Positions 26,547 through 44,081 of a stretch of 64,000 bases of DNA are shown piece by piece (position 1 is the first letter of the stretch; every line of letters starts with the position of its first letter). The notes under the pieces were generated by a model that did not search any database, was not told where the DNA came from, and saw only the letters and a program-made list of their open reading frames with translations. Source of the stretch: Pseudomonadota bacterium (GTDB lineage Bacteria; Myxococcota_A; UBA796; SXON01); the NCBI GenBank assembly GCA_030684355.1, contig JAUXTN010000002.1, positions 28,069 through 92,068 of the forward strand. The letters are read 5' to 3'. Made by a program: the position numbers and the translations under genes.

Positions 26547-28439
26547 TCACTCGCAGACGGCGTCGCTCCACGCGTCGACGTTGTTGCCCTCGTCGCACTC
26601 GAAGAGCATGCCCGCCAGGGTGGCGTCGGCATCGGCCACGGCGAACGGCTCGGCGCCGCCGAGGGCGCTGGCGTCGAGCTCGAAGAACAGGGCCTCGCCG
26701 GTCTTGCCGGAGGGGACGGGGAGGGTGGTGTACTGGGTTGAGAGGACGGCGCCGCTCGGCCCCGCCCGCACGCTCACGGGCAGGCCCGCGGGTGCCTCCT
26801 GGTTGCCGGCGTTGGTGAGCCAGGCGCCCACGAACACCACGCCGTCGGCGCACTCGGTCTCGCACACGTCGAAGATCTCGGCCTGGACGTCGAGGTACTC
26901 GCCGGGCGGCTGCCCCACGTCCCCCGAGCGGAAGCTGTTGTGCTCCGGCCAATTCGGGCTGGCGGTGACCGGGATCTCCCCGTGATCCCCCACGTTGGTG
27001 ATGGAGTATCCGTGTTGGTTCCAGATCTTGCGCCCGGCCGGCCAACTGTCGTCGGCGTCCCCGTAGACGGTGAACGACTTGTTCCACGAGCAGTGGCCCA
27101 CGACGATCTCGACGTGGCCGTCGTTGTCCACGTCGGCGACGACGGGGGTCTCCACGATGGTGCGGCTACCGTGCTCGTCGGAGTCCATCTTCACCGCGCC
27201 GTCGAGGCCGGAGAAGAACCGCACGTTGGTCTCGTCGGCGTAGAGCACCTCGGGGTAGCCGTCCATCTCGAAGTCGAAGAGCACCGCGCCGGCCGCGCCC
27301 GAGAAGTCGTCGACGCTCGCCTTCCACTTCTCGATGCCGCCCCACTCCATCGCCACGAGGTAGCTCTGCGCGGCGAACACGATGTCGGGCACGCCGTCGC
27401 CATCGAGGTCGTCGACCGACGGGGGGCCGACGTTCACGCCGTAGTAGCCGTAGTTGACGGGGCCCCAGACCTCCGTGCCGTCGGACTCCATGCCGGTGAT
27501 GAACCAGCCGCTCGTCTTGACGATCTCCCCCTCGCCGTCCCCGTCGAAGTCCGCCACGGCGATGAGCCCGTCCCGGCCGTCGTTCTGCCACTTCACCGAG
27601 CCGTCCGGGTTGTACGCGGCGTTGCCGGTCACGAGCTCCTCGGTGCCGTCCCGGTCGAGATCGACGGGCACGGAGAGCGCGCCGTAGCTGATGCCGTAGG
27701 TGGAGTCTCCCTCGAGATCCGCACCGCCGATGCCGAGGCGGCCGCGGCCGCGCAGCGAGCCGTCGTGGTTGAGGATCACGCTGCCGACGGTCACCTCGGG
27801 GTGGCCGTCGTGGTCCATGTCCGAGATGGAGGGGTGGTTGTAGCCGAGGGCGTCCACCGAGGAGCTGACATTGGGGGAGGTCCAGACCACCGCGCCGGTG
27901 CGGCCGTCGAGCGCGCGCACGTTGCTGACCCCCCCCACGACGACCTCGGGCCAGCCGTCCCCGTCGAGGTCTCCGATGGCGAAGCCGCCGTCCTGCCCCA
28001 TGCCGGTGTCGGTCTCCCAGTAGACCCCCGAGTTGTCGCCCTTCACGGCGACGACCCGACCGCCGTCGGTCCCGGACAGCCCGCCCTGGAAGATGACGAT
28101 CGCCGGCATGTCGCCGTCGTCGATGGCGCCCGACGCGTTGCTGTCGACGATCTGGCCGACGGCCGGGGGCCCGCAGAACGAGGTCGTGCCGTAGTGGTAC
28201 TCGACCACGGGGGTGAACGTGCCCGTCTGCAAGCCCACGTCACACTCGGTGTTGAGCGCGACATCGTGCGGCGAGCCGGTGAGCCCCTCGCAGACCTCCG
28301 AGTAGTCGATCTCGACCGGCGGCACGGAGCCGCCGGCGGTGTCGTCCGCGCCCTCGTCCTTGTTGGTGTTCAGGTCGTAGTCCTGACAGGCCGAAGCCAG
28401 GGGCGCGGCGAGGAGGAGGAGGAGGAGGACAGGGCGCAT
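26547..28439 (-). CDS. FG-GAP/VCBS-repeat (integrin-alpha-like beta-propeller) lipoprotein
   Basis: 'MRPVLLLLLLAAPLASAC' is a lipobox. Repeated 'GDLDGDGWPEVVVG', 'DMDHDGHPEV', 'DLDRDGTEELV', 'ADFDGDGEGEIV', 'DDLDGDGVPDIVF', 'FEMDGYPEVL', 'ADVDNDGHVEIVV' calcium-binding FG-GAP motifs. Confidence 0.85.
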   Translation of the reverse strand: MRPVLLLLLLAAPLASACQDYDLNTNKDEGADDTAGGSVPPVEIDYSEVCEGLTGSPHDVALNTECDVGLQTGTFTPVVEYHYGTTSFCGPPAVGQIVDSNASGAIDDGDMPAIVIFQGGLSGTDGGRVVAVKGDNSGVYWETDTGMGQDGGFAIGDLDGDGWPEVVVGGVSNVRALDGRTGAVVWTSPNVSSSVDALGYNHPSISDMDHDGHPEVTVGSVILNHDGSLRGRGRLGIGGADLEGDSTYGISYGALSVPVDLDRDGTEELVTGNAAYNPDGSVKWQNDGRDGLIAVADFDGDGEGEIVKTSGWFITGMESDGTEVWGPVNYGYYGVNVGPPSVDDLDGDGVPDIVFAAQSYLVAMEWGGIEKWKASVDDFSGAAGAVLFDFEMDGYPEVLYADETNVRFFSGLDGAVKMDSDEHGSRTIVETPVVADVDNDGHVEIVVGHCSWNKSFTVYGDADDSWPAGRKIWNQHGYSITNVGDHGEIPVTASPNWPEHNSFRSGDVGQPPGEYLDVQAEIFDVCETECADGVVFVGAWLTNAGNQEAPAGLPVSVRAGPSGAVLSTQYTTLPVPSGKTGEALFFELDASALGGAEPFAVADADATLAGMLFECDEGNNVDAWSDAVCE

Positions 28440-28669
28440 GCGACGTCCAGGGCGGCCCGCTGGTTGTACAACCGTCCGCCGGGCGTCGCCATGGGCGCGC
28501 GGGTGTTGAGCCGGGACGCCCGTTGACTTGAGGAGATGATCGCGAACGTGATGCGATGGTTTCTCACGCCTCGCCCGAGCTCATCGCGTTAAGCAAGCGG
28601 CCCCAACATGCTGTTCACGCTGCGGAGGCGAGCTTGCGCATGCGTTCGCGTGACACTGGTGCTACCCCG

Positions 28670-29074
28670 ATGAATGTCGGGGATCGAATCCTCGAGGTCG
28701 AGCTCGGGCGAGAGGTCGCCGTCGGGACCACCGTCGAGACCGCCGGCCGCATCTTCCTCACGCTCCGGGCGCGCCTCGGGCGCTGGATCGGCGTGGACGC
28801 CTTCGATGCCCTGATGGATCGCGCGATCACCGAGGGCCGCTCCGTCCACGCGGTCCTCGCCCGTGCCCGTTGGATACCCGACGGCAACCCCCCGCTCTCC
28901 GGCCTCGACCTCCCGGACACGCCGGAGGCCACGGCGAGCCTCCGCGCCGCCGTCGTTGCGATCCTGGACAAGATCACCGCCCTGTTGGGACGCTTCATCG
29001 GCGACGACCTCGCCTCCCGCCTGGTGATGCAAGACTGGGAGGCCCCGGGAACCGGACCTCAGGAGGATCCATGA
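28670..29074 (+). CDS. hypothetical protein, first gene of the KaiC-like module (134 aa; starts at 28556/28640 possible)
   Basis: Normal composition. Stop overlaps the kaiC-like ATG (ATGA 29071-29074), and AGGAGG for the next gene lies inside its 3' end. No KaiA/KaiB similarity that I can recognise. Confidence 0.6.
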   Translation: MNVGDRILEVELGREVAVGTTVETAGRIFLTLRARLGRWIGVDAFDALMDRAITEGRSVHAVLARARWIPDGNPPLSGLDLPDTPEATASLRAAVVAILDKITALLGRFIGDDLASRLVMQDWEAPGTGPQEDP

Positions 29075-30747
29075 AGGCAGGCTCCGTGACCATCCGCAAC
29101 GTGCCGACGGGCGTACCGGGCCTGGACGAGATCCTGGCTGGAGGCCTCCCGGAATTCTCCTTCAACCTCGTGGCGGGCGAGCCCGGCGCGGGAAAGACCA
29201 CGCTCACGCAGCAGATCGTCTTCGCCAACGCCACTGTGGAGCGGCCGGCGCTGTACTTCACGCTGCTCGGCGAGCCGACGCTGAAGCTCCTGCGGTACCA
29301 GCAGCAGATGAGCTTCTTCGACCGGGGCCGCGTCGGCTCCGCGGTGCAATTCATCAATCTCAGCGAAGAGGTCCTCCGTGGCGACCTGGGGCTCGTGCTC
29401 GACCGCATCGCGGCCGAGGTCGAGCGCGCGCGGCCCGGCGTGGTCGTGGTGGACTCGTTTCGCACCGTCACGGGCGGCTCGCAGGAGGGGCGCGCCGATC
29501 CGGCGCTCGAGCGCTTCATCCAGGGGCTCGCGCTGAAGCTCACCAGTTGGGAGGTCACCTCGTTCCTGGTGGGCGAGTACCAGGAGAGCGAGCTGCGCAA
29601 CCCGGTGTTCACGGTCGCGGACGGGGTGTTCTGGATGAGCCAGTCCGTCGACCAGAACTCGGTGGTTCGCAAGATCCGGGTCGTGAAGATGCGCGGGCGT
29701 GCCTCGATGCCCGGCCTCCACACGATGCGCCTCACCTCGGACGGCGTGCAGGTGTTTCCGCGCACGGTCATCCGCGCGCCCGCGGTCGAGGTCCGGCGGC
29801 CAAGACATCGGCTCTCCACCGGCATCGCCGGGCTCGACGACATGATGGGCGGCGGAGTCCCCGCGGGCGACGCCGTCGTGCTCGTGGGGCCCACCGGCAG
29901 CGGCAAGACGGCGTTCGCGACCCGCTTCGCGGCGGCTGGCCAGGAAGCTGGCGAAGCCTCCGTGATCGTCGTCTTCGAGGAGCATCCGAGGGACTACGTG
30001 GCGCGTGCGCGGCTGTTGGGCCTCGATCTCGAGGCGATGCAGGCCAGCGGGCTCGTCCGCCTCGTCTACCTGCGCCCGCTCGACCTGTCCCCGGACGAGG
30101 TGCTCCACGAGGTCCGCACGCAAGCCCGCGAGATCTCCGCGCAGCGGGTCATCATCGACTCCCTCTCGGGCTTCCGCACCGCGCTCGCCCCGACCTTCCG
30201 AGCCGACTTCCGAGAGTCGCTCTACCGCCTCGTCGCCGCGCTCACCGCCGAGGGCACGACAGTCTGGATGACGCTCGAGATGGAGAGTGACCGCCCGCTC
30301 GCGTTCACGCCCCCCGAGGTGGCGTTCCTGTGTGACGACATCATCGTGCAGCGCCAGGTCGAAGTCCAAGGGAGGCTCCGCAACGTGCTGGCTGTCGTGA
30401 AGATGCGAGGCAGCGCGCACAGCCACGAGATCCGCGAATACCGGATCTCGGAGGAAGGCGTGCGCATGCTGACGACGACGCCCGAGTTCGAGGGCGCGTT
30501 CACGGGCCGGACGAGGCTCCGCAGCGCCAACCGCACCCTCCCCGGGCTGACCCGGCAGGAGCACGCGGTCCTGCGCGCGCTCGAGGAGGAGATCGCGTTG
30601 ACGCAGGTCGTCGCGGCGACGGGGCTCGAGGCCGCGGTAGCGGAAGCGGCGTTGCGGCGGCTCGTGACGCTCGGGTACGCCATCGAGCGGACGCCAGCGG
30701 ACGGGGCACCCCACCTCTTCCGGGGGGCGGCTTCGGCGAGGACATGA
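29071..30747 (+). CDS. KaiC-like double RecA-fold ATPase with C-terminal winged-helix-like extension (558 aa)
   Basis: Two halves, each opening 'GVPGLDEILAGGLP...GEPGAGKTT' / 'GIAGLDDMMGGGVP...GPTGSGKTA' (Walker A). 'VVVVDSF' / 'RVIIDSLS' (Walker B). 'VVKMRG' occurs in both halves. Tail 'LTRQEHAVLRALEEEIALTQVVAATGL...LVTLGYAIERT'. Confidence 0.85.
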   Translation: MKAGSVTIRNVPTGVPGLDEILAGGLPEFSFNLVAGEPGAGKTTLTQQIVFANATVERPALYFTLLGEPTLKLLRYQQQMSFFDRGRVGSAVQFINLSEEVLRGDLGLVLDRIAAEVERARPGVVVVDSFRTVTGGSQEGRADPALERFIQGLALKLTSWEVTSFLVGEYQESELRNPVFTVADGVFWMSQSVDQNSVVRKIRVVKMRGRASMPGLHTMRLTSDGVQVFPRTVIRAPAVEVRRPRHRLSTGIAGLDDMMGGGVPAGDAVVLVGPTGSGKTAFATRFAAAGQEAGEASVIVVFEEHPRDYVARARLLGLDLEAMQASGLVRLVYLRPLDLSPDEVLHEVRTQAREISAQRVIIDSLSGFRTALAPTFRADFRESLYRLVAALTAEGTTVWMTLEMESDRPLAFTPPEVAFLCDDIIVQRQVEVQGRLRNVLAVVKMRGSAHSHEIREYRISEEGVRMLTTTPEFEGAFTGRTRLRSANRTLPGLTRQEHAVLRALEEEIALTQVVAATGLEAAVAEAALRRLVTLGYAIERTPADGAPHLFRGAASART

Positions 30748-33173
30748 GCACCAACGCGGGCCCGGGCGAGCGATTGGTAGCAGCCCAGGTCGCCCTGCAA
30801 CGAGACACGGGGCTCGCGGACGAGAGCCAGGTCGCCGCGCTGGAGAACCTGACACGCGTCGCGGTCCAGGCCATGCGTTCCGCGTCGGCGTTCGTGTCGA
30901 TCGTCGGCGAGCGTGACGCCTTGTTCTTCTGCTCCACCGGCGTTCGCCCCCCCCTCGGCCCCTCCTCCGACGCCTCCCCCTCGCTCGGCCGGCACCTGCT
31001 CCAGATCGGCGGGCCGGTCGCGTTCGCCGATGTCCGGGAGGACAGCGCGCTCCGTGACGCGTGGGAGGTCGCGCTGCTCGACGCCGTCGCGCTCCTCGCG
31101 GTGCCCCTGGTCGTCGACGGGGTTCCCCTGGGCGTCCTCGCCGTGGTCGACAGCACGGCGCGCCAGTGGACCGGACACGACGAGCGGGTCCTCATGGACC
31201 TCGCGGCGATCGCCACGCACCAGATCGCGCTGTCCCGGCGCGTCCGGACGGCGGCCGTGCGGGAAGCGGAGTACGCGGAGCGGGCGCTCCTGGAGAGTCA
31301 CAGCCGGTACCGCGCGCTCGTCGAGTACTCGCCGGATGCGATCCTCGTCGTGCGTGACGACCTGATCGCGTATGCCAACCCGGCGGCCGTGCGCCTGACC
31401 GGGGCATCGTCCGCACAGGCCTTCGCCGGGCTCCGGGCCGAGACGCTCCTGGTGCCGCCCTTCCTGAAGGTCGTCCGTGCGGGAATCCTCAATGGCGAGC
31501 CGGCGCCCAGCATCTACGCCGACGAGGAGCTGACCTGTTTCGACGGGAGGAAGGTCCAGGTCGAGGTCTCCGCGTTCCCGTTCCTCTCCAACGACCGGCC
31601 GGCGATCCTCCTGAACCTGCGGGACGTGACCGAGCGCCGCCGTGCGGAGGTCGCGATCCGCCTTCAGGAAGCGCAGTTGCGCCTCCTGGTGGATCAGCTC
31701 CCCGTCCTCGTCTGGGCCACCGACGAGAACCTGCGTGTCACCTCGATGCAGGGGGCCCCGGTGGGGGACCTGCCGTCGCCGGCGCGGCTGGACGGCCCCG
31801 TCGAGGAGCTCTTCGGCCAGCGAGACCCCGACTCCGCCCCGCTGGCCGCGCAACATGAAGCCCTCGCGGGGGCCGAGGTTGCCTACCGCACGCGCTGGCA
31901 TGATCGCGTGTATGACGTGCTCGTGCGTCCCCTGCGTCGTGAGGACGACGTGCTGGTCGGCACGGTGAGCGTCGCGATGGACGTGACGGAGCAGGTGCGG
32001 CTCGCCGAGGAACTCCGGGAGGCCCATCACCTGGCGCTCGTGGGACAGATCGCCGCGGGCGTGGGCCACGAGATGAACAACCTCCTGGGCACCGTGCTCG
32101 GCATCGCGTCCGTGGTGGCGCTGTCCGAGGACGCGTCTCCCAGTACGCGCGCGGACCTCGACATCGTCAAGGCCACCGCCCTCCGCGGCAAGGAGATCAC
32201 CTCACGCCTGCTCGGCTTCGCGCGCGAGGGGATGTACCGCCGGGCGCCGATCACCACCGCGGACATCCTCTTCCGCGTCGCCGAACGGGTGCGGGAGTGG
32301 GGCCCCACGATGAACGTGGTAGTCGACGTGCCGCCTGCGCTGCCGAACCTCGAGGGGGACGAAGAGCAGGTCGAGGCCGCGCTCATGAGCCTCTGCGAGA
32401 ACGCGCGGGATGCCATGCCCAAGGGCGGGACGCTCACGATCTCGGTGTGCCGCGAGGCCCCGGGCCCTCGGGCCGGTCCGGACGCCTCCTCCCCCGTCGG
32501 TGGGTGGATCCGCGTGGACATCGCCGACACGGGCGTTGGGATGAGCGAGGAGGTGCGCAAGCGCGCCGTCGAGCCCTTCTTCACCACGAAAGCGGTCGGA
32601 ACGGGTGTGGGGCTCGGGCTCTCGATGGCGTACGGCGTCGTGCGGCATCACGGCGGGGAGTTCGTGGTGCACACCGCGCCGGGGGTCGGCACCACGGTGA
32701 TGGTCTACCTGCCCGTGCCGGGAGCTCTCGTCGCGGTCCCCGACGTGCCGCGCGAGCCGCCGGTGGCGGTTGCGCCGGAGCGCGGGGGCCTCGTGCTGGT
32801 CGTCGACGACGACGAATGGGTCCGGTTTTCCTCGCGCCGGCTCCTCGAGGCCATCGGGTACGAAGTGGCGGAGGTCTACGGCGGCCCCGAGGCCATCGCG
32901 CTCTACCGTCTTCGCGGCCCCGAGATCTGCGCGGTGCTCCTCGACATGCGCATGCCGCGCATGGACGGCGCGGAGGTGCTTCGACAGTTCCTCGAGATCG
33001 ACCCCGACGTGCGGGTCATCCTCTGCACCGGATTCGAGCGGGACGAGGTGAGCCAGGGGCTCTTTGGCGAGGGGCACGTCGGCTTCCTCGGGAAGCCCTT
33101 CACCGTCGAAGAGCTGGCCGTGCAGCTCGGCATCCATGCCCGTGTGGGGCCCAAGCCGTGTGTGGTGAGCTGA
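30744..33173 (+). CDS. hybrid sensor histidine kinase (GAF - PAS - PAS-like - HisKA - HATPase_c - REC), 809 aa
   Basis: ATG overlaps the kaiC-like stop (ATGA 30744-30747). PAS 'YRALVEYSPDAILVVRDDLIAYANPAAVRLTG'. H-box 'IAAGVGHEMNNLLG'. 'DTGVGMSEE...GTGVGLGLSMAYG'. Receiver 'LVLVVDDDEWVR...VLLDMRMPRMDG...GKPF'. Confidence 0.9.
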   Translation: MSTNAGPGERLVAAQVALQRDTGLADESQVAALENLTRVAVQAMRSASAFVSIVGERDALFFCSTGVRPPLGPSSDASPSLGRHLLQIGGPVAFADVREDSALRDAWEVALLDAVALLAVPLVVDGVPLGVLAVVDSTARQWTGHDERVLMDLAAIATHQIALSRRVRTAAVREAEYAERALLESHSRYRALVEYSPDAILVVRDDLIAYANPAAVRLTGASSAQAFAGLRAETLLVPPFLKVVRAGILNGEPAPSIYADEELTCFDGRKVQVEVSAFPFLSNDRPAILLNLRDVTERRRAEVAIRLQEAQLRLLVDQLPVLVWATDENLRVTSMQGAPVGDLPSPARLDGPVEELFGQRDPDSAPLAAQHEALAGAEVAYRTRWHDRVYDVLVRPLRREDDVLVGTVSVAMDVTEQVRLAEELREAHHLALVGQIAAGVGHEMNNLLGTVLGIASVVALSEDASPSTRADLDIVKATALRGKEITSRLLGFAREGMYRRAPITTADILFRVAERVREWGPTMNVVVDVPPALPNLEGDEEQVEAALMSLCENARDAMPKGGTLTISVCREAPGPRAGPDASSPVGGWIRVDIADTGVGMSEEVRKRAVEPFFTTKAVGTGVGLGLSMAYGVVRHHGGEFVVHTAPGVGTTVMVYLPVPGALVAVPDVPREPPVAVAPERGGLVLVVDDDEWVRFSSRRLLEAIGYEVAEVYGGPEAIALYRLRGPEICAVLLDMRMPRMDGAEVLRQFLEIDPDVRVILCTGFERDEVSQGLFGEGHVGFLGKPFTVEELAVQLGIHARVGPKPCVVS

Positions 33174-33280: not shown

Positions 33281-33943
33281 ATGCCGACCCCGTTTCCCTT
33301 CGCGGCGCTCCTCTTCGACCTCGACGGCGTGCTCGCCGACACCACGCGGCTCCACTTCCGGGTCTGGGAGGCCTTCGGGCGCACCCACGGCCACGAGCCT
33401 AGCACGGCGGAGCTGCTCGCCACGACCGGGCGGCGGGGGATCGAGGTCCTGCGGGACTGGTTCGGAGACAGGCTGTCGGAGGGGCAGGTCCTGGCCTGGA
33501 CCTTGGAGCGGGAGGCCTTGTTCAAGCGCTTCGTCGCGACGCATCCCGTCACCCAGATCGCGGGGGCCCGGGCCTACGTCGCGGCCGTGGTCGAGGCCGG
33601 GATCCCGCGCGCGGTCGTGACGAGCGCGGTCCCCGGGAACGCCACGATCTCGCTCGCCCAGGTCGGGCTGGAGGGCGCGTTTCCCCTCGTCATCACCGCG
33701 GCGGACGTGATCCACGGCAAGCCGAGCCCGGAGCCCTACCTGAAGGCCGCGGCGCTCCTGGGGGTGCCGCCCAACCGCGCCCTGGTCTTCGAGGACGCGG
33801 TCGCCGGCCTCCGCGCCGCCCGGGCCGCGGGTGCGCGCTGCGTCGCGCTGACCACGTCGTTCCCCGCCGATCTGCTCGCCTGTGAGCAGCCGGACTGGCT
33901 GGTCCAGGACTTCACCGATTTGCCGGCGGAGCTCTGGCCGTAG
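33281..33943 (+). CDS. HAD-superfamily hydrolase (beta-phosphoglucomutase-like subfamily IA)
   Basis: Motif I 'LLFDLDGVLADT', motif II 'VVTSA', motif III/IV 'GKPSPEPY...VFEDAVAGLRAARAAG'. Confidence 0.85.
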   Translation: MPTPFPFAALLFDLDGVLADTTRLHFRVWEAFGRTHGHEPSTAELLATTGRRGIEVLRDWFGDRLSEGQVLAWTLEREALFKRFVATHPVTQIAGARAYVAAVVEAGIPRAVVTSAVPGNATISLAQVGLEGAFPLVITAADVIHGKPSPEPYLKAAALLGVPPNRALVFEDAVAGLRAARAAGARCVALTTSFPADLLACEQPDWLVQDFTDLPAELWP

Positions 33944-34096: not shown

Positions 34097-35467
34097 ATGC
34101 AGAACGACTGGACGCCCTCCTCCTGGAAGCGCTTCCCCGCGCGGCAGCAGGTCCACTACGACGACCCCGCCGAGCTCGAGAGCACCCTCGCGAAGCTCGC
34201 GCGCCTCCCGCCGATCGTGACGAGCTGGGAGGTCGAGAAGCTCAAGACCCAGCTCGCCGAGGCGGGCCGCGGAGAGCGGTTCCTCCTGCAAGGGGGGGAC
34301 TGCAACGAGCGCTTCGTGGACTGCCAGTCGAACCGCATCGACAAGAAGCTGAAGGTGCTCCTCCAGATGAGCGCCGTGCTCATCTACGGGAGCGGGCGCC
34401 GTGTCGTCCGCGTGGGGCGCATCGCGGGGCAGTACGCGAAGCCGCGCTCGGAGCCGACCGAGACGCGCGACGGCGTGACCCTGCCCGCCTACCGCGGGGA
34501 CCTCGTGAACCGCACCGAGTTCACCGCCGCGGCCCGCCGCCCCGACCCGAGCAACCTGCTCGAGGCCTACGGCCGCTCGGCGATGACGATCAACTTCGTG
34601 CGCAGCCTGCTCTCCGGCGGCTTCGGGGACGTGCATCACCCCGAGGTGTGGGACCTCCAGTGGGTCGAGAAGGCGAGCGAGCCGGACGAGTACCGGGCGC
34701 TGGTCGAGTCCATGCGCGCGTCCGTCCGCTTCCTCGACGCGATGGTCGGCCGTCCGGTCTCCGAGCTCGCCAACGTCGACTTCTACACGAGCCACGAGGG
34801 CCTGCACCTCGACTACGAGCAGGCCGCGACCGAGCATCCGCCGCTGCGCGAAGGCTACTACGACCTCTCCACCCACCTCCCGTGGATCGGCGAGCGCACG
34901 CGCGACATCGGCGGCGCCCACGTCGAGTTCTTCCGTGGCATCCGCAACCCCATCGGCGTCAAGGTCGGCCCCACCATGGAGCCCGAGGAGCTCCTCGCGC
35001 TCCTCCAGGTGCTCAACCCCGACGACGAGCCCGGCCGCATCACGCTCATCGCCCGTATGGGCGCCAAGAAGGTGGCCGAGCGGCTCCCCCCGCTGGTCGA
35101 GGCCGTCCGCCGCGCCGAGCGGGTCGTGACCTGGTGCAGCGACCCCATGCACGGCAACACCTACAAGACCGCGGACGGCACGAAGACCCGCCGGTTCGAC
35201 GACATCCTCGCCGAGGTCGACCAGAGCTTCCTCGTCCACGCGGACGTGGGCTCGGTCCTCGGCGGCGTGCACTTCGAGCTCACCGGCGAGAACGTGACCG
35301 AGATCGTGGGCGGCTCGTGCGGCCTCACCGAGGCCGACCTCGGCTCCGCCTACGAGAGCGACGTGGATCCGCGCCTCAACCACGCCCAGGCGCTGGAGAT
35401 GGCGTTCCTCATCGCGCGGCGCTTGAAGGACCCCCGGTTCCAGCCCCGGTCGGCCGCGGTCGGTTAG
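34097..35467 (+). CDS. 3-deoxy-7-phosphoheptulonate (DAHP) synthase, class II
   Basis: 456 aa. 'WTPSSWKRFPARQQVHY...FLLQGGDCNERF...GRIAGQYAKPRS...LPAYRGDLVN...WIGERTR...NPIGVKVGP...DPMHGNT' is typical of plant-like class II DAHPS. Confidence 0.9.
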   Translation: MQNDWTPSSWKRFPARQQVHYDDPAELESTLAKLARLPPIVTSWEVEKLKTQLAEAGRGERFLLQGGDCNERFVDCQSNRIDKKLKVLLQMSAVLIYGSGRRVVRVGRIAGQYAKPRSEPTETRDGVTLPAYRGDLVNRTEFTAAARRPDPSNLLEAYGRSAMTINFVRSLLSGGFGDVHHPEVWDLQWVEKASEPDEYRALVESMRASVRFLDAMVGRPVSELANVDFYTSHEGLHLDYEQAATEHPPLREGYYDLSTHLPWIGERTRDIGGAHVEFFRGIRNPIGVKVGPTMEPEELLALLQVLNPDDEPGRITLIARMGAKKVAERLPPLVEAVRRAERVVTWCSDPMHGNTYKTADGTKTRRFDDILAEVDQSFLVHADVGSVLGGVHFELTGENVTEIVGGSCGLTEADLGSAYESDVDPRLNHAQALEMAFLIARRLKDPRFQPRSAAVG

Positions 35468-35743: not shown

Positions 35744-36100
35744 TTACGGCGCGGTCCCGCAGGCGAGGTAGACCTCGAGCAGCACGAGGTCGTCGCGGTA
35801 CACGCCGCCGCCCACCGGCATCGTGCCGGCTTCCAACACGACCCGGCGCACGTCCGCGGCGTGCGCGTGCACGGCGGCCTCGGTGTCGAAGTCGATGCCG
35901 ACCGGGGCCCCGCTGCGTTGGGTGGTGTTTGCGCTGGAGTGGCACGCGGTGCAGTAGGTGCGGAAGAACCCGGCGCCCCAGGCGTCCCAACTGACGGTCG
36001 GGAGCTCGGCGCAGCGCTTCGCGGTGGCGGCCTGGGCGGCGGGCGTCGCCTCCGCGGGGGGCTCGATCGGGGTGACGCATGCCACCAGGAGCAGGATCAT
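35744..36100 (-). CDS. small lipoprotein with c-type heme-binding motif (cytochrome c-like), 118 aa
   Basis: ATG 36100 overlaps the DUF1501 stop (ATGA). 'MILLLVAC' is a lipobox. 'FFRTYCTACHSS' is CxxCH. The downstream 'GTMPVGG' is a possible Met ligand. Confidence 0.7.
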   Translation of the reverse strand: MILLLVACVTPIEPPAEATPAAQAATAKRCAELPTVSWDAWGAGFFRTYCTACHSSANTTQRSGAPVGIDFDTEAAVHAHAADVRRVVLEAGTMPVGGGVYRDDLVLLEVYLACGTAP

Positions 36101-37353
36101 GCGATCGCCGCGGTGAGCGGCGCGTTCTCGCCGGGGTCCACGTCGCCGAGGGCGAGCAGGGTGGCGCCGAAGTTGGCCGCCTGGATCACCGCGCCGTCCT
36201 CCGTGGCGTCGCCGGTGGCGAAGTCCGCGCCGAGGCCGTACCCGCCGTCGTCGAAGCCCCCGATCACCTGCCCGCCGCGCACGCCCGCGCCGAACAGCAT
36301 CGCGGAGGTGAACGTCCAATGGTCGCGCCCGTCGCCGCCGTGGAGGAGCGGCGAGCGGCCCATCTCGGAGAGGACCACGATGGTGACCTCGTCGGCGAGC
36401 GATCCGCCGGTGATGGACGGGCGCGACTCGAGGTCCGCGACGATGCGCGCGAGGAAGTCGAACAGCTCGTCGTAGTTCTGGCCCTGGCGGGCGTTGCTGC
36501 TGTGGGTGTCCCAACCCTCGCTGCACCAGCCGAGGTACTCCACGAGCGCGGTGCGCGCGAGGCCGGCCTCGAAGGCGTCGAGGACCGTCGTGGCATCCCC
36601 GATGAGCGTCGTGCAGCCGGCGGGCGCGCCGCCGAGCGCGAGGGTGTCACCCCACGCCTGGAAGTCGACGTGGTCGGCGTGGGTCCGCGCGAACTTCGCG
36701 GCCATGGGGGAGGTCCCCGAGAGGATCCCGGCGCGGTCGGCAAGCCAGGCGTCCACCCGGGAGGCGGTCGCGGCCGACGGCATCTGGACGGGGCGGTCCT
36801 GGCGCAGGAGCGCGTTGCCGTCGAGCAGATCGCCGAGCTGCCCGTGGCTCCCGACGCGCACGACGCGGTCGGTGTAGGCGTCCGTGAACGCGGTCCCGCT
36901 CGTCACGAGGTAAGGGAGCAGGAGCGGCGAGGTGCTCCGCCCCGCGAGCGTGGCCCCCCAATCGTCCCCGGCGCCGTCGGTGGTGCCCGTCAACATGATG
37001 CGGCTGCACCGCTCGTGGGTGACGGACGGCACCTCGATGCCGTTGATGACACACGTCCGGTCGCCGTATGTCTCGAAGAAGGCACGTACGAAGGGCCGGT
37101 TCGGCGAGTCAACGAACCGGATGCCGCTCGCCTCCGCCTCCACGGCGTCGGCCTCCATGTCCACGCCGGACGCCCCGAAGTTGGGTTGGAACACGTAGGT
37201 CGTGTCCCACCCGCCAAAACAATGGATGAACAAGAACCGACGCCGCGCCGCGTCGGTGCCCCCCGCGCGGACCAAGCGGGGCAGGCACACACCCGCGCCG
37301 AGGCCCGCGGCCGCGAGCGTGAGGAAGGAGCGGCGGGGGAGGAGGGTGCGCAT
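36097..37353 (-). CDS. DUF1501-family (sulfatase/alkaline-phosphatase-fold) protein with TAT signal
   Basis: 'RRSFLTLAAAGLGAG' is a twin-arginine signal. 'FLFIHCFGGWD', 'GWDTHSSN', 'VTIVVLSEMGRSP...DGRDHW' are characteristic DUF1501 blocks. Confidence 0.8.
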   Translation of the reverse strand: MRTLLPRRSFLTLAAAGLGAGVCLPRLVRAGGTDAARRRFLFIHCFGGWDTTYVFQPNFGASGVDMEADAVEAEASGIRFVDSPNRPFVRAFFETYGDRTCVINGIEVPSVTHERCSRIMLTGTTDGAGDDWGATLAGRSTSPLLLPYLVTSGTAFTDAYTDRVVRVGSHGQLGDLLDGNALLRQDRPVQMPSAATASRVDAWLADRAGILSGTSPMAAKFARTHADHVDFQAWGDTLALGGAPAGCTTLIGDATTVLDAFEAGLARTALVEYLGWCSEGWDTHSSNARQGQNYDELFDFLARIVADLESRPSITGGSLADEVTIVVLSEMGRSPLLHGGDGRDHWTFTSAMLFGAGVRGGQVIGGFDDGGYGLGADFATGDATEDGAVIQAANFGATLLALGDVDPGENAPLTAAIA

Positions 37354-37356
37354 CGT

Positions 37357-39021
37357 TCAGTAGGCCTGGAACCGGGGGTCGCGGATCATGGCGTCGATGA
37401 CCGCGGACCACGCGGCGTGCGCGCCCTCTTCGGCCTCCACGGACGCCCAGAGCGCCGTGATGGAGCTCGTCCACGTGTCGTCCGGCCGCTCGGCGTACCA
37501 GCGCCAATACAAGGAGCGGAGCTCGGCTTCGAACGCGGGGTCCGTGCTGGGCGTGTCGAGCGCGACGCCCTGCAAGGTGGTGTGGGCGCCCTCGGCGAGG
37601 TCCCGCTCCACGAGCGTGAAGCCGGCGGCCTCCGCGAGCCGCGCGTTGACCATCGCCCAGGTGAGGCCGGGGTCCTGCTGGGTCTCGGTCGCCGAGTAGC
37701 CGTTCACGCCGCCGCGCAGCACGCGGTAGCCCACGACGTCGTTCTCGAGCTGGGCGAAGCCCGCGGCGGTCCAACCGAAGCCGGTCTCCGCCTCGACCAC
37801 GGTGGCGAGCTGGTTGGGGGTCAGGAGCCGCTCGACGCGCTCCCGCCCGCGCACCTCGTCGGGCGCGTCGTCGGTGAAGCCGCCGGCGCGGTACTCGGCG
37901 GTGTCCGTCACGGCGCGGAGCAGGGTCAGCGGCGAGAGGTCGGCGTCCACGAACGTCTGCCGGAGCGCCTCGATCGAGGCGTAGTCGCGCAGCCCGATGT
38001 CCCGGTGCCAGAGCTGCTCCGCGAACGACTGGGCGCCGCACCGGATGAACCGCGGATCGTGGGAGACGTGCCACCCGAGGTCGACCAGGCCCGTGATCGG
38101 CGTTCCGTACCACGCGGGCTCGACACCCAGGAGCGTCGGGCCGAGCGGCTCGCGCTCCCGATGGTAGTTCTGCATCTCGTACGGGTTGTATTGGATGACC
38201 CACCAGTAGCCGAACAGGGTCGCGGCGGCGGGATCGATGGAGGAGTGGCAGCTCTGGCACGCCGGATCCGTGCGGATCGCCGCCTCCGGATCGGTGTTGG
38301 TCGAGCGTTGGAACACCACCGGCCGGGACAAGATGTCGGTGCACAGCAGGAGCTTGGAGACCGCCGCGATGCGCCCGCGGCTCTTGTTGGACTCGTTGGT
38401 GACATAGCGCCACCAGAGGCCGTTGGTCGAGAGGATCCCGGCGGCCGGGCGCCCGTCCTTGTAGTGGGAGACCTGCCAGCCCTCGACCCCCTCCGGGTAT
38501 TCGATCGGCCAGATGGCGCCGAGCAGCTCGTTCGCCATCGTGTAGTCGGCGGTCACGATGTCGGTCCACGGCAGGTCGTTCGCCGTGACGTGCGCGAGCA
38601 GCCGCAGGGGCTCCTCTCCCACGGCGTGCGAGTAGGTGTCCGCCATCTGGTCGGGCAGCGCGTAGTCGTTGTAGCCGACCTCGTACTCGTCCATGACCGT
38701 GTGCCAGCGCTCGGCGAACAGGGAGACGAGGCGGTCCTCCAGGCGCGGGTCCGCGAGGTAGGTGTCGCGGTAGCCGTCGAGCAAGGTGGGATCGGCCTCC
38801 ACGGCGTCGAGCTCCGCCTCGGTGGGGAGGACGCCGCGCAGGTCGAGGCTCATCCGGCGCAGCAGGCGCGGGGCCGCCAACGAGGTCAGGTAGGGGGCGT
38901 CTCCCTCCCACCCGACGCCCGCCACGGTCGGCGAGAGCGGGGCGAGGGCGCGCGGGCCGTCGACCTCCGCGCCGGCGGACGTGATCGGTGTGTCGCACGC
39001 GGCGAGCAGGAGCAGGATCAC
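37357..39021 (-). CDS. DUF1549/DUF1553-like protein with CxxCH motif (lipoprotein; GTG start 39021)
   Basis: GTG 39021 gives VILLLLAAC (lipobox) and overlaps the upstream stop (GTGA). 'LLRRMSLDLRGVLPTEAELDAV' resembles the DUF1549 signature, and 'CQSCHSSIDP' resembles its CxxCH-x-DP block. Located directly upstream of DUF1501, the usual partner. Confidence 0.7.
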   Translation of the reverse strand: MILLLLAACDTPITSAGAEVDGPRALAPLSPTVAGVGWEGDAPYLTSLAAPRLLRRMSLDLRGVLPTEAELDAVEADPTLLDGYRDTYLADPRLEDRLVSLFAERWHTVMDEYEVGYNDYALPDQMADTYSHAVGEEPLRLLAHVTANDLPWTDIVTADYTMANELLGAIWPIEYPEGVEGWQVSHYKDGRPAAGILSTNGLWWRYVTNESNKSRGRIAAVSKLLLCTDILSRPVVFQRSTNTDPEAAIRTDPACQSCHSSIDPAAATLFGYWWVIQYNPYEMQNYHREREPLGPTLLGVEPAWYGTPITGLVDLGWHVSHDPRFIRCGAQSFAEQLWHRDIGLRDYASIEALRQTFVDADLSPLTLLRAVTDTAEYRAGGFTDDAPDEVRGRERVERLLTPNQLATVVEAETGFGWTAAGFAQLENDVVGYRVLRGGVNGYSATETQQDPGLTWAMVNARLAEAAGFTLVERDLAEGAHTTLQGVALDTPSTDPAFEAELRSLYWRWYAERPDDTWTSSITALWASVEAEEGAHAAWSAVIDAMIRDPRFQAY

Positions 39022-39899
39022 TCGGTCACCGGCGGGTGCTCGTGCATGTACGCCGCGAGATCCGCCGCCATGGCCGCCATGGCCACCGTCGGGTCGACAC
39101 ACGCCTCGCCGAGGGACACCTCGTCGGCGTAGACGACCTCGCCGCAGGTGTCACACGCCGACGAGAAGGTGAGCACGTACCAATACCCGGCGTCGTCGCG
39201 CAGCCGGATCGCGCCGGTGGGAGAATCGCCGCAGGTGCCGCCCACGGCGAGGTCGTCGAAGTAGACCGCGGCGCCGCCGAGATCGTAGCCCCCGTCGAGC
39301 TCGGCCAGGATCGTGCCGTCGTCGCCGAAGGTGGCCTCGATCCACGCGGAGCCGCTCGTGCCCTCGCCCAACCAGAGCCCGGCGGGCAGGTAGTGGAAGC
39401 TCCCGAGCAGCTCCTGGGAGAAGGTGACACCGCCGTCCACGACCGTGACCGTCGCTTGGGTGTCCCCACCCACCTCGAACGGGTTGCCACCCGTGTCGAT
39501 GATCACGAGGTCCGCGCGGATCTGGTAGCTGTAGACGGCCTCCTCCCACCGGCCGACCCCGCCGCCCGCGCCCGAGTACACGACGCCCGACTCGGCCCGG
39601 CACCCGCCCGGGGTCAGGATCTCGAAGGCCTCGGCGTCGGGGGTGCACCGGCTGTCCCCCTGGGCCATCAGCGCCGCGAAGCTGCGGGCGAGGGGAGGGA
39701 AGGTGGGGATCTGCCACGCGAGCGCCTCGGCGAGGGCGTCTCCCACCCCCGCGGCCGTGAGCGACGGCGCCGGGATCGTGGGGCCGGTGGGGGCGGTGTC
39801 GTCGGTGGCCTCGACGCCGGTCTCGGAGACGGCGGTGTCCTCGTCGCGCGGCGGTTCCGGCGTCGGGGCGGAGCAGGCGAGGAGGAGGAGGGACCACAT
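39018..39899 (-). CDS. lipoprotein of unknown function, first gene of the DUF1549/DUF1501 operon (293 aa)
   Basis: ATG 39899 gives MWSLLLLAC (lipobox). Only this 3' part of the 1525-codon minus-strand ORF has normal composition; the remainder is antisense to the repeat protein. Confidence 0.65.
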   Translation of the reverse strand: MWSLLLLACSAPTPEPPRDEDTAVSETGVEATDDTAPTGPTIPAPSLTAAGVGDALAEALAWQIPTFPPLARSFAALMAQGDSRCTPDAEAFEILTPGGCRAESGVVYSGAGGGVGRWEEAVYSYQIRADLVIIDTGGNPFEVGGDTQATVTVVDGGVTFSQELLGSFHYLPAGLWLGEGTSGSAWIEATFGDDGTILAELDGGYDLGGAAVYFDDLAVGGTCGDSPTGAIRLRDDAGYWYVLTFSSACDTCGEVVYADEVSLGEACVDPTVAMAAMAADLAAYMHEHPPVTE

Positions 39900-40064
39900 G
39901 GCTGGCTGGAGGGTAGCTCGGGGTCCCGGCGAGCGGCGCGCGTCGTGCGCGCCTCGACCGCATTTCGACACGCGCCAAGGGCCCGCTTCCGCGCGGCCTC
40001 CGTCGGATTGGCTGCCGGCTCGCGTAAGCATGATGTAAGGTTCTGTCTCCTCCGGTGCTCCCGC

Positions 40065-43000
40065 ATGCGTCTGCTCCTGCTCCTCGCCGCCTTCTCCCCG
40101 TCCATCGCGGCCGCCGCCCCCTGGTACGCCGACAGCGACGCCGACGGCTACGGCGACCCCGACGACGTCGTGAACGCGAACAGCGCCCCCGCCGGGTACA
40201 TCGCGGACGACAGCGACTGCGACGACGGGGACGCCGCGGTCAACCCCGCGGGCACCGAGACCTGCAACGGCTACGACGACGACTGCGACGGCAACCTCGA
40301 CGACGCCGGGGACTGCGCGTGCGACGTCGAGACCTTCGACGGCAAGGCCTACCAGTTCTGCTCCACCGCCCGAAGCTGGACCAGCGCGCTCGCGTACTGC
40401 GAGGCCGACGGCTACTCGCTCGCGACGATCAGCTCCGCCGCCGAGGACGCGTGGATGAACACGGAGGCGGACAGCCGCTCCACGGCCAAGTGGTGGATGG
40501 GCATCAACGACCGCACCACCGAGGGGACGTTCCGCTGGGCGGACGGCAGCACGACCGCGCTGTACACCAACTGGCACTCCGGGGAGCCCAACGACTCGGG
40601 GAGCAACGAGGACTGCGGCCAGCACAACCGCTACACGGACGGCACCTGGAACGACGAGCCGTGCACGTCGTCGTTCTACTACATCTGCGAGTACGGCGAG
40701 CTCCTCTCGATCTACACGGACGCCGATGGCGACGGCTACGGCGACGACGGCGCCGCCGCGGTGACCTCGAGCGACGTGCCGAGCGGCTACGCCGACAACA
40801 ACGACGACTGCGACGACAGCACCACGAGCGTGAGCCCCGCCGCGACGGAGATCTGGTACGACGGGATCGACCAGGACTGCGACGGCAACGACGCCGACCA
40901 GGATCTCGACGGGTACGACGCCACCTCCGAGGGCGGCACCGACTGCGACGACACGGACGCGTCGGCCTACCCGGGCGCCCCGGAGACCGCGTACGACGGC
41001 ATCGACCAGGACTGCTCGGGCGCCGACCTCACCGATGTCGACGGCGACGGCTGGGACGCCGGGGACGACTGCGACGACACCGACGCCGCCATCAACCCGG
41101 ACGCCGCGGAGTCGTACTACGACGGGGTCGACCAGGACTGCGACGGCGGCTCCGACTACGACGCCGACGGGGACGGCTACGACTCCGACGCCTACGGCGG
41201 CGACGACTGTGACGACGCCGACGCCTCGATCAACCCGGGCGCGCTCGACATCCCGTACGACGGCATCGATCAGAACTGCAACGGGTCGGACGGCATCGTC
41301 GACGCCGACGGCGACGGCTACAACAGCACGGTCGACTGCGACGACAGCGACGCCGGCGTGAACCCCGGCGAGGCCGAGGTCTGGTACGACGGCACCGACC
41401 AGGATTGCGACGGCAACGACGGCGACCAGGACGGCGACGGCGACGACGCCACGAGCGTCGGCGGCACCGATTGCGACGACACGGATGCCACGATCAACGA
41501 CGGCGCCGTCGACATCCCGTACGACGGCATCGACCAGGACTGCGACGGCAGCGATGCCACGATCGACGCCGACGGCGACGGCTACGTGTCCACCGTGGAT
41601 TGCGACGACTCCAACGCGCTGGCGAACCCGGGCGCGACCGACACCCCCTACGACGGCATCGACCAGGATTGCGACGGGAGCGACGCCGAGGTCGACGCGG
41701 ACGGCGACGGCTACAACTCGCTCGACGACTGCGACGACGCGGACGCCTCGGTCCACCCTGGCGCCACCGACATCGCGTACGACGGCATCGACCAGGATTG
41801 CGACGGCGCCGATGCCACGGTCGACACCGACGGCGACGGCTACGACTCCTCCGTCGACTGCGACGACACCGACGCCGGCATCAACCCCGGCGAGGCCGAG
41901 ATCCCCTACGACGGCATCGACCAGGACTGTGACGGCGCGGACGGCGTCGTGGACGCCGACGGGGACGGCTTCGACTCGCTCTCCGACTGCGACGACACCG
42001 ACGCCACGGTGAACCCCGACGCGGCCGAAGCCTGGTACGACGGGGTCGACCAGGACTGCTCCGGCGGCTCCGATTACGACCAGGATGGCGACGGCCAGGA
42101 CGCCCCCGGCGGCGGTGGCCTCGACTGCGACGACACGGACGCCACGGCCTACGACGGCGCGGTGGAGAACTGGTACGACGGCGTCGACCAGGACTGTGAC
42201 GGCGGCTCCGACTACGACGCCGACGGCGACGGGTTCGACTCCGCCAGCTACGGCGGCGACGATTGCAACGACGGGGACGCCTCGATCAACCCCGACGCCT
42301 TCGACGACTCCTCCGACACCATCGACCAGGACTGCTCGGGCGACGCCAGCCACGACGCCGACGCCGACGGCTACACCGACGCCGCGTGGGGGGGCGACGA
42401 CTGCGATGACGCCAATTCGAGCGTGAACCCCGGGCAGGTCGAGGCCTGGTACGACGGGCTCGACGCCGACTGTGACGGCGGCTCCGACTTCGACCAGGAC
42501 GGCGACGGTTTCGACAGCGCCGACTACGGCGGCACCGACTGCGACGATCTCGACGCGGCGACCAATCCGGGCGCCACCGAGGTCTGGTACGACGGGGCGG
42601 ACGCCGACTGTGACGGCGCCTCGGACTACGACGCCGACGCCGACGGCGAGGACAGCAGCGACTACGGCGGCACCGACTGCGACGACACCGACGAATTCGT
42701 CAACGCAGCCTCCCCCGAGGCCTGGTACGACGGCGTCGACGGCAACTGCGACGGCCTGTCCGACTACGACGCCGACGGCGACGGCTACGACTCGATCACC
42801 TACGGCGGCACCGACTGCAACGACGGGAGCGCCACGACCTGGCCGGGAGCCCCCGACGACGCGGCCGACGGCATCGACCAGGACTGCTCCGGCGACGACA
42901 ACCACGACGCCGACGGCGACGGCTACGAGGACGTCGCGGAGGGCGGCGACGACTGCGACGACGCCAACTCCGACGTGCGGCCCGGCGCGGTCGAGGTCTG

Positions 43001-44081
43001 GTACGACGGCATCGACCAGAACTGCGACGGCCTGTCCGACTACGACCAGGACGGCGACGGCTACGATGACGCCGCCTACGGCGGCCTCGACTGCGACGAC
43101 ACCGCCGCGCTCGTGAACCCCGACGGCATCGAGACGTACTACGACGGCGTCGACGGCAACTGCGACGGCCTGTCCGACTACGACGCCGACGTCGACGGGT
43201 TCGACAGCGACGCCTACGGCGGCGACGACTGTGACGACGCCGACGCGACGACCTACCCGGGCGCGCCCGAGATCCCCGACGGCCTCGACAACGACTGCAA
43301 CGGCACGGTCGAGGACGACGACACCGACGGCGACGGCCTCACCGACGACGAGGAGGCGGTGGTCGGCAGCGACCCGACCGACGCCGACAGCGATGACGAC
43401 GGGCTCTACGACGGCGACGAGGTGGGCGACGACGTGGCCGCCCCCGACGACACCGACGCCGACGGCCTGCCGGACTGGAACGACGCCGACGATGACGCCG
43501 ACGGCATCCCGACCGCGGACGAGGTGGGCGACTACGACCCGACGGACCCCACCGACACCCCCGACGACGTGGACGGCGACGGCACCCCCGACCACGAGGA
43601 CCTCGACTCCGACGCCGACGGCATCGCGGACGCCGACGAGGGGATGGAGGACTTCGACGGCGACGGCCTCGGCGACAGCGAGGACGCCGACGACGACGGC
43701 GACGAGATCCCGACCATCGTGGAGAACGCCGAGGACGCCGACCTGGACGGCGACGCCGATCCGGACGCCGACGGCGACGGCATCCCCAACTACCAGGACA
43801 CCGACTCCGACGGCGACGAGCTCCCCGACCTCGACGAGGGCACGGTGGACGAGGACGGCGACGGCATCGCCGACTACGTCGACCCCGAGGAGAACGACGA
43901 CACGGGCGAGGTCCCGGACGACACCGGCGTCCTCCCGGACGACACCGGCACGCTTCCGACGTGGACGTACGAGGGCGGTGGCGGTTGCGCGTGCTCCCTG
44001 GCCGCCCTGAACCCGACAGGCGGGCTCGCCTTCTTCGCGCTCCTCCCCGCGGCCTTCGCGCTCTTCCGCCGCCGTCGGTGA
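40065..44081 (+). CDS. giant surface protein: signal peptide - C-type lectin domain - ~20 MopE-like 'putative metal-binding' repeats - thrombospondin type-3 repeats - MYXO-CTERM tag (1338 aa)
   Basis: ATG 40065 (MRLLLLLAAFSPSIAAA). CTLD with 'WWMGINDR...GEPND...EDCG...GTWNDEPC...YICE'. Repeated 'DGDGY.S..DCDD.DA..NPGA.E..YDGIDQDCDG'. 'DTDGDGLTDDEE', 'DSDADGIADADE' and similar. C-terminus 'GGGGCACSLAALNPTGGLAFFALLPAAFALFRRRR'. Confidence 0.9.
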   Translation: MRLLLLLAAFSPSIAAAAPWYADSDADGYGDPDDVVNANSAPAGYIADDSDCDDGDAAVNPAGTETCNGYDDDCDGNLDDAGDCACDVETFDGKAYQFCSTARSWTSALAYCEADGYSLATISSAAEDAWMNTEADSRSTAKWWMGINDRTTEGTFRWADGSTTALYTNWHSGEPNDSGSNEDCGQHNRYTDGTWNDEPCTSSFYYICEYGELLSIYTDADGDGYGDDGAAAVTSSDVPSGYADNNDDCDDSTTSVSPAATEIWYDGIDQDCDGNDADQDLDGYDATSEGGTDCDDTDASAYPGAPETAYDGIDQDCSGADLTDVDGDGWDAGDDCDDTDAAINPDAAESYYDGVDQDCDGGSDYDADGDGYDSDAYGGDDCDDADASINPGALDIPYDGIDQNCNGSDGIVDADGDGYNSTVDCDDSDAGVNPGEAEVWYDGTDQDCDGNDGDQDGDGDDATSVGGTDCDDTDATINDGAVDIPYDGIDQDCDGSDATIDADGDGYVSTVDCDDSNALANPGATDTPYDGIDQDCDGSDAEVDADGDGYNSLDDCDDADASVHPGATDIAYDGIDQDCDGADATVDTDGDGYDSSVDCDDTDAGINPGEAEIPYDGIDQDCDGADGVVDADGDGFDSLSDCDDTDATVNPDAAEAWYDGVDQDCSGGSDYDQDGDGQDAPGGGGLDCDDTDATAYDGAVENWYDGVDQDCDGGSDYDADGDGFDSASYGGDDCNDGDASINPDAFDDSSDTIDQDCSGDASHDADADGYTDAAWGGDDCDDANSSVNPGQVEAWYDGLDADCDGGSDFDQDGDGFDSADYGGTDCDDLDAATNPGATEVWYDGADADCDGASDYDADADGEDSSDYGGTDCDDTDEFVNAASPEAWYDGVDGNCDGLSDYDADGDGYDSITYGGTDCNDGSATTWPGAPDDAADGIDQDCSGDDNHDADGDGYEDVAEGGDDCDDANSDVRPGAVEVWYDGIDQNCDGLSDYDQDGDGYDDAAYGGLDCDDTAALVNPDGIETYYDGVDGNCDGLSDYDADVDGFDSDAYGGDDCDDADATTYPGAPEIPDGLDNDCNGTVEDDDTDGDGLTDDEEAVVGSDPTDADSDDDGLYDGDEVGDDVAAPDDTDADGLPDWNDADDDADGIPTADEVGDYDPTDPTDTPDDVDGDGTPDHEDLDSDADGIADADEGMEDFDGDGLGDSEDADDDGDEIPTIVENAEDADLDGDADPDADGDGIPNYQDTDSDGDELPDLDEGTVDEDGDGIADYVDPEENDDTGEVPDDTGVLPDDTGTLPTWTYEGGGGCACSLAALNPTGGLAFFALLPAAFALFRRRR
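40711..43305 (+). repeat. in-frame array of ~19 degenerate 36-46-codon repeats (MopE-like Cys/Asp motif)
   Basis: I counted the recurring '...NP(G/D)A.E.(W/P/Y)YDG(I/V)DQ(D/N)C(D/S/N)G' units in the translation. A further copy lies N-terminal to the lectin domain. Confidence 0.85.

Follow-up and report, generated by a model that had tools for sequence, protein, structure and literature searches.

Three overlapping genes on the + strand of a 64,000-nucleotide stretch of bacterial DNA (contig JAUXTN010000002.1, positions 28,069 to 92,068; the window) encode a small all-helical protein, a double-domain ATPase of the KaiC family with a predicted C-terminal winged helix, and a hybrid histidine kinase. 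In all 11 related loci inspected gene by gene, which come from Myxococcota, Gemmatimonadota and Chloroflexota, the small gene comes first, the KaiC-like gene second and a gene for a PAS/GAF histidine kinase third. Comparative sequence analysis points to a real three-gene operon that is widespread in many soil-type bacteria. Gene linkage, residue states and precedent make it slightly more probable than otherwise that the KaiC-like protein works as an ATPase-state switch: the small protein would regulate it, it would in turn gate the kinase, and the winged helix would serve as an accessory module for docking.

Gene order and operon structure

The three open reading frames (ORFs) extend from 28640/28670 to 33173 in a window with a G+C content of ~72%. 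The genes and the first ribosome-binding-site candidate are as follows.

28624..28628, + strand: GGAGG, a Shine-Dalgarno-like motif read from the sequence, 11 nucleotides upstream of the ATG at 28640
28640..29074, + strand: gene for the small all-helical protein, 144 residues (134 residues from the alternative ATG at 28670)
29071..30747, + strand: gene for the KaiC-family double-domain ATPase with a predicted C-terminal winged helix, 558 residues
30744..33173, + strand: gene for the soluble hybrid histidine kinase, 809 residues

An earlier reading of the window from its letters alone (the sequence-only reading) described three same-strand genes joined by ATGA start/stop overlaps, and both overlaps are present. 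The TGA stop of the small ORF (29072-29074) overlaps the start of the KaiC-like gene at 29071-29074, and the TGA stop of the KaiC-like gene (30745-30747) overlaps the start of the kinase gene at 30744-30747. A second GGAGG is located at 29062-29066, 4 nucleotides 5' of the KaiC-like ATG at 29071. The start of the small gene had been placed at 28670, which is also the NCBI gene call (134 residues; protein P0001 is identical to it). The ATG at 28640 is more likely on sequence grounds because it has the GGAGG motif 11 nucleotides upstream, homologs of 139-143 residues align through the added segment, and a gene call of 144 residues belongs to the same 90% cluster.

The inspected loci include L001, L003 and L004, a Myxococcota metagenome-assembled genome (MAG; L005), a Gemmatimonadales locus (L006), a Chloroflexi locus (L007), two loci from further metagenomes (the P0035 locus and L010) and two with tail-less members (L011 and L012). 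L001, L003 and L004, from contigs whose small proteins are about 50% identical to that of the window, contain the trio with overlaps of 4 bp and with flanking genes unrelated to each other. The trio is opened in L005-L007, the P0035 locus and L010-L012 by an ORF of 144-162 residues without a Pfam match. The small gene and the ATPase gene overlap in each of the named loci, by either 4 or 8 bp. The third gene codes for a histidine kinase with PAS or GAF domains, to which a receiver domain is added in some loci.

A metagenome scan seeded with small-protein patterns from a 12-sequence alignment identified 56 loci. The N terminus of a KaiC-like protein is encoded directly 3' of the small gene in 48 of the 49 loci that have at least 250 nucleotides downstream, and a kinase core comes next in 12 of the 13 loci with enough room. 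A survey of genome contigs with a close-clade alignment, and hence narrow search patterns, gave only 2 loci. The sequence-only reading proposed that the ATPase has its own accessory protein and is wired to a two-component kinase. The gene linkage in the inspected and metagenome loci supports both proposals, and the conservation of the small ORF beside kaiC-like genes extends beyond Myxococcota to Gemmatimonadota and Chloroflexota.

A second, more degenerate KaiC-like gene is present in L007 (4071-5546; 491 residues, no tail). It ends exactly at the start of the small gene, so that this Chloroflexi MAG has an operon of four genes at the locus. The MAG that contains the window is labeled 'Pseudomonadota bacterium' by NCBI, and some of the closest labeled relatives of the trio are Myxococcota MAGs. 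A related contig (L008) is labeled 'uncultured Enterobacteriaceae', and the taxonomic labels look unreliable.

A small protein of duplicated helices

The small protein has no Pfam or NCBIfam match and is named 'hypothetical protein' in the source databases. It consists of two repeats of a long helix-Gly-short helix unit that contain the motifs LGRWIGxD and LGRFIGDD, and hhalign detects homology between the two halves (probability 83%, E 9.5e-6). The AlphaFold2 model has five helices with a predicted local distance difference test score (pLDDT) of 87.5 and a predicted template modeling score of 0.82.

A profile search of 1.84 billion cluster representatives retrieved 1,463 relatives at E <= 1e-3, including 270 at E <= 1e-10, with lengths of 109-262 residues among the matches listed. 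Distant members align with the window protein and have the common motifs L.RW.G and LLGR.IG.DLA.R. Meaningful Pfam matches were absent from 54 diverse family members, a PDB profile search with the family gave no match at E <= 5, and Foldseek comparison of the model with the PDB gave nothing better than E 4. These searches agree with the earlier impression that the upstream protein resembles neither KaiA nor KaiB, and both assignments were rejected. The small protein is all-helical, whereas KaiB is an alpha/beta protein. A tblastn search of the 64-kb window with an approximate KaiB query detected no KaiB-like ORF (best E 0.4).

The KaiC-like ATPase and its C-terminal winged helix

Pfam analysis identifies two PF06745 KaiC domains in the 558-residue product (E 3.6e-70), and the PDB entries that it matches best are structures of KaiC (E about 1e-51). 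The protein scores below the cut-offs of the NCBIfam circadian KaiC equivalogs PRK09302 / TIGR02655 (241.4 vs 408 bits; 143.2 vs 546.25 bits). Its domains and motifs are arranged as follows.

29089..29775, + strand: N-terminal KaiC domain, CI-like, residues 7-235 (HMMER alignment to KaiC CI)
29176-29199, + strand: CI Walker A motif GEPGAGKT, residues 36-43
29263-29277, + strand: CI LLGEP in place of the catalytic Glu-Glu pair
29440-29457, + strand: CI Walker B motif VVVVDS
29809..30471, + strand: C-terminal KaiC domain, CII-like, residues 247-467 (alignments to KaiC)
29887-29910, + strand: CII Walker A motif GPTGSGKT, residues 273-280
29968-29982, + strand: CII catalytic VVFEE
30319-30339, + strand: CII VAFLCDD, with Ala418/Phe419 at the S431/T432 positions of KaiC
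30472..30546, + strand: linker from CII to the winged helix, residues 468-492, ~25 residues, low pLDDT
30547..30726, + strand: predicted MarR/TrmB-type winged helix-turn-helix, residues 493-552, ~60 residues (profile, AlphaFold2 and Foldseek)

The linker keeps a G-x-x-T-G motif that matches RIISGSP of KaiC, just ahead of the A-loop. The tail that follows is confidently predicted to be a winged helix, in line with the sequence-only reading. The window tail alone gives only sub-threshold matches to MarR_2 and DprA_WH (21-22 bits vs the Pfam cut-off of 27). At E <= 0.01, TrmB matches 18 of 22 homologous tails and MarR_2 matches 17 (best E 1e-9), and the profile built from these 22 matches MarR-family structures in the PDB (E 3e-6). 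AlphaFold2 modeling of the tail alignment yields a helix-helix-helix-hairpin over residues 493-552 with a pLDDT of 92-97. Foldseek comparison of this model with the PDB gives MarR-family proteins as the leading matches, and almost all of the top 50 are winged-helix regulators related to MarR, Fur or ArsR (probability 1.0, root mean square deviation 2-3 Å, ~68 residues). A phmmer match to Rhodobacter KaiC (PDB 8dba) reaches query residue 543 in the tail region, which is possibly a mere extension of the alignment. A Rhodobacter-like coiled coil was rejected for the tail; the model is globular and has no long helix.

The distribution of the tail was followed through the best 120 of thousands of ATPase homologs. 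It is found in 102 of them and in 13 of the 20 complete ATPases from the metagenome loci. The closest homologs (70-83% identity) have 485-493 residues and no tail, and most others (56-60% identity) have 561-582 residues and a tail. The window protein is nested within an otherwise tail-less clade in a neighbor-joining tree of the ATPase core, and two further tail-less groups are located among the tailed proteins. This scatter marks the tail as ancestral to the family, dispensable for the trio and repeatedly lost, including in the nearest relatives of the window protein. The window protein would have either retained its tail while its relatives lost theirs several times or regained it. The idea that the tail is a lineage-specific oddity was discarded; the nearest relatives are without it, yet the large majority of the homologs carry it.

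The sequence-only reading raised the possibility that the tail connects the ATPase to DNA. Under one alternative, the KaiC-like protein would itself be an ATP-driven DNA-binding regulator whose winged helices read an operator under the control of the ATP state, and the kinase and small protein would merely modulate it. The fold and sequence profile of the tail are those of MarR/TrmB regulators, including the wing, and the tail is present in most homologs. Conservation across the 102 tails is seen in the hydrophobic core, in an invariant Arg of the third helix and in a Tyr-Arg pair of the wing. Unlike MarR/TrmB proteins, however, the tail has no MarR dimerization helices, is net acidic (-1 in the window protein and -1.5 on average over the 102 tails) and has a non-basic recognition helix. 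At the exposed positions of this third helix, Asp, Glu, Ala or Pro predominate and orthologs differ from one another. At least three lineages have lost the tail but kept the trio intact. The acidic domain, the non-basic recognition helix and the repeated loss make DNA binding doubtful, and an operator-reading regulator is an unlikely description of the protein. The chemistry of the tail would better fit a role in protein docking or pairing.

Catalytic and phosphorylation-site residues

HMMER alignment places FTLLGEP of the CI domain opposite VTFEESP of KaiC, which removes the E77/E78 pair, and VAFLCD of the CII domain opposite ISTITD, which replaces S431 with Ala and T432 with Phe and retains the T426 equivalent. 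The replacements of the CI pair and of S431/T432 had been proposed in the sequence-only reading, together with the two Walker A motifs and the intact VVFEE of the second half, and the alignment upholds each of them. The canonical KaiC phosphosites are absent from the window protein.

A residue census of the same 120 homologs, aligned with an approximate KaiC sequence, distinguishes family-wide features from those of the window clade. All 120 proteins retain the CII Glu-Glu pair and, in each domain, the Walker A and B motifs and the Lys/Arg sensors. The CI pair is replaced by Leu-Gly-Glu in all 120, leaving one invariant Glu (E68), whose placement differs by one position between HMMER and MAFFT. 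The first KaiC domain may still be active. Position 432 is Phe throughout (120/120), and position 431 is Ser in 109 proteins and Ala in nine. The T426 equivalent is Thr in 97 and Ser in 14. The nine Ala-431 proteins are the window protein and eight tail-less homologs, seven of which belong to its immediate clade. Loss of Ser431 is thus specific to the small clade of the window protein. With Ser retained in 109 homologs, phosphorylation may persist in the family at large.

These residues bear on the proposal that the system keeps time by phosphorylation, as an hourglass or stress timer of the kind formed by the KaiC homologs of Rhodopseudomonas, Rhodobacter or Pseudomonas, with autophosphorylation outside the 431/432 positions. 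The intact CII catalytic residues, the T426 equivalent and the Ser at 431 in most of the family are consistent with such a timer, and Pseudomonas homologs are phosphorylated as the culture ages (10.1101/2022.01.26.477890). Ala at 431 in the window protein and its clade, Phe at 432 across the family and the negative tblastn search for a KaiB-like gene argue against it. We regard a phosphorylation timer as improbable here, a little more so than the DNA-binding regulator.

The hybrid histidine kinase

The third gene encodes a kinase with no obvious membrane segment and the following domains.

30837-31214, + strand: GAF domain (Pfam)
31305-31643, + strand: PAS domain (PAS_4; Pfam), with a second PAS-like stretch up to 32042
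32043-32225, + strand: HisKA domain, H-box GHEMNN, His442
32355-32720, + strand: HATPase_c domain (Pfam)
32793-33119, + strand: receiver domain, Asp734 in LLDMRMP

The catalytic His and the N and G boxes are legible in the translation, as are the receiver motifs VVDDDE, LLDMRMP (Asp), ILCTGF (Thr) and LGKPF (Lys). The best NCBIfam matches are to CckA and VirA-like kinases. These scores fall far under the family cut-offs, and the protein is therefore classed as a generic hybrid kinase.

Comparison with known KaiC systems

The sequence-only reading stated that no characterized example of this architecture was known. One part of this statement does not hold. The KaiC homolog of Pseudomonas is 'virtually always' a neighbor of a histidine kinase, works without KaiA or KaiB and binds the N-terminal PAS domain of the kinase (10.1101/2022.01.26.477890; Terrettaz et al., Environ Microbiol 2023). 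Like the window trio, the Pseudomonas modules place a double-domain KaiC homolog without KaiA in one predicted operon with a PAS-bearing (hybrid) histidine kinase. They have a non-circadian, stress-related role. The Pseudomonas KaiC is phosphorylated at one or two sites, where the window protein has Ala/Phe, and its modules are accompanied by single-domain response regulators or CsrA-type genes. No small duplicated-helix partner or winged-helix tail has been reported in them. The pairing of a KaiC homolog with a kinase is thus already known; what appears to be new is the family of small partners, together with the winged-helix tail. Literature searches found no description of the trio, of a bacterial KaiC-winged-helix fusion or of the small protein.

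The cyanobacterial KaiABC clock shares with the window protein the two-ring KaiC architecture, the Walker motifs, the Lys/Arg sensors of both domains and the CII Glu-Glu pair. Its output also runs through kinases, with SasA and CikA docking on KaiC. CikA resembles the window kinase in combining a GAF domain and a kinase core with a receiver-like domain at the C terminus. The receiver of the window kinase differs in that it retains the phospho-acceptor Asp. The window differs from the clock in that no KaiA or KaiB was found, the CI Glu-Glu pair is Leu-Gly with one Glu left, the S431/T432 sites are missing, a winged helix is added and the score is far under the KaiC equivalog cut-offs.

The KaiC of Rhodobacter sphaeroides (KaiC2 type, PDB 8dba) has a C-terminal extension that acts as a regulatory element (10.1101/2022.11.28.518275). 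Both proteins are KaiA-less and have an added C-terminal element beside the A-loop, which is a built-in regulator in Rhodobacter. The Rhodobacter extension is a coiled coil of ~50 residues that joins two hexamers, whereas the extension in the window is a globular domain with a predicted MarR-like winged-helix fold. Rhodobacter also has KaiB and Ser-Ser phosphosites, unlike the window.

Myxobacterial KaiC homologs have been reported as unstudied; many lack phosphosites and have 470-514 residues. Archaeal KaiC-like ATPases were reportedly described by Makarova, Galperin and Koonin in mBio in 2017 (cited in PMC5847659) as a 'signal transduction hub', fused to or located beside domains of the signaling or DNA-binding type (REC, PAS, HalOD1). 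These archaeal modules are said to be mostly single-domain or inactivated, unlike the window protein.

The operon bears on how KaiC homologs outside cyanobacteria function and are controlled when KaiA, and often KaiB as well, is missing. For one large branch of the KaiC family it supplies an answer that is concrete, widespread and open to testing, in which a dedicated small partner is combined with a kinase output. Its natural variants differ in informative features (Ser or Ala at the phosphosite, tail or no tail). Their comparison could show whether a KaiC-type ring signals by ATPase state alone and what the winged helix contributes.

Proposed mechanism

What is established directly is how the genes are ordered, that this order is conserved, which domains are encoded and which residues occupy the critical positions. 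From these results we infer that the ATPase forms a hexamer, that the proteins make the contacts described here and which of them controls which. The KaiC-like protein most likely assembles as the usual double-ring hexamer. The N-terminal ring would bind ATP but, without the Glu-Glu catalytic pair, is probably slow or structural. The C-terminal ring retains every catalytic residue and so probably turns over ATP. Given the Ala/Phe residues at the KaiC phosphosites of the window clade, the signal is probably carried by nucleotide state and conformation rather than by a phosphorylation cycle. The hexamer would dock on the PAS/GAF region of the kinase and gate its autophosphorylation or phosphatase activity; KaiC likewise acts on SasA and CikA, and the Pseudomonas homolog contacts its kinase at the PAS domain. 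The small protein, made in step with the ATPase via the overlapping genes, would be a dedicated binding partner, regulator or adaptor that takes the place of KaiA or KaiB although it is unrelated to them. Six winged helices would crown the top of the C-terminal ring, the place where KaiA binds in the clock and where the regulatory coiled coil of Rhodobacter KaiC is located, and would form a docking or dimerization module more probably than a sequence-specific DNA reader. The 'non-oscillating' switch of the sequence-only reading is in the same way an inference rather than a result.

Several observations weigh against an ATPase-state switch of this kind. The invariant E68 remains in the first domain, so the N-terminal ring may still hydrolyze ATP. 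The T426 equivalent is kept and most members have Ser at 431, so phosphorylation may matter in the family, perhaps at other sites in the window protein. Two conserved features of the tail are compatible with DNA binding, namely the Tyr-Arg pair in the wing and the invariant Arg typical of MarR-type domains. Two metagenome loci depart from the trio: L034 (809-1369) is an orphan small gene with no KaiC-like gene after it, and the third ORF of L068 (5444-7312; 622 residues) is unmatched to the kinase core.

Two further explanations were considered. A DNA repair or recombination ATPase of the RecA/RadA/Rad55 type that is located beside a kinase by chance would account for the winged helix, for the weak RecA, RadA and DnaB_C matches and for one homolog named 'RAD55 family ATPase' by NCBI. 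These matches are limited to the P-loop core and are far under curated cut-offs, KaiC structures are the best matches, and the strict linkage is to the kinase and to no repair gene, which leaves a repair role highly improbable. An anti-phage defense or mobile-element module is the least credible of the alternatives: the flanking genes differ between genomes and a serine recombinase is located near the trio in L004, but the flanks are mostly housekeeping or metabolic, effector-like domains are absent, and PADLOC returned only short P-loop matches that amount to noise.

A bolder reading may be considered, though we hold it only tentatively and somewhat doubt it. The small protein would found an unrecognized class of KaiC-family regulators with no relation to KaiA and KaiB and would form, with the phosphosite-free hexamer and the kinase, a phosphorylation-independent ATPase timer or energy sensor common in Gemmatimonadota, Chloroflexota and Myxococcota.

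Neighboring genes in the window

The trio is preceded by a divergent gene for an FG-GAP repeat protein (26547-28439, - strand) and followed by genes for an HAD-family hydrolase (33281-33943, + strand) and a class-II DAHP synthase (34097-35467, + strand). These flanking genes are conserved beside the trio in none of the other loci and are therefore not part of the module. A 1,017-residue ORF at 36079-39132 (+ strand) has no Pfam match and, at the G+C content of the window, may or may not be a real gene. The 1,697-residue ORF at 38988-44081 (+ strand) contains a C-type lectin domain as well as 19 repeats of the MopE-type copper-binding motif (PF11617, E 4e-152), and its DNA has an unusually strong AT skew of 0.29-0.37.

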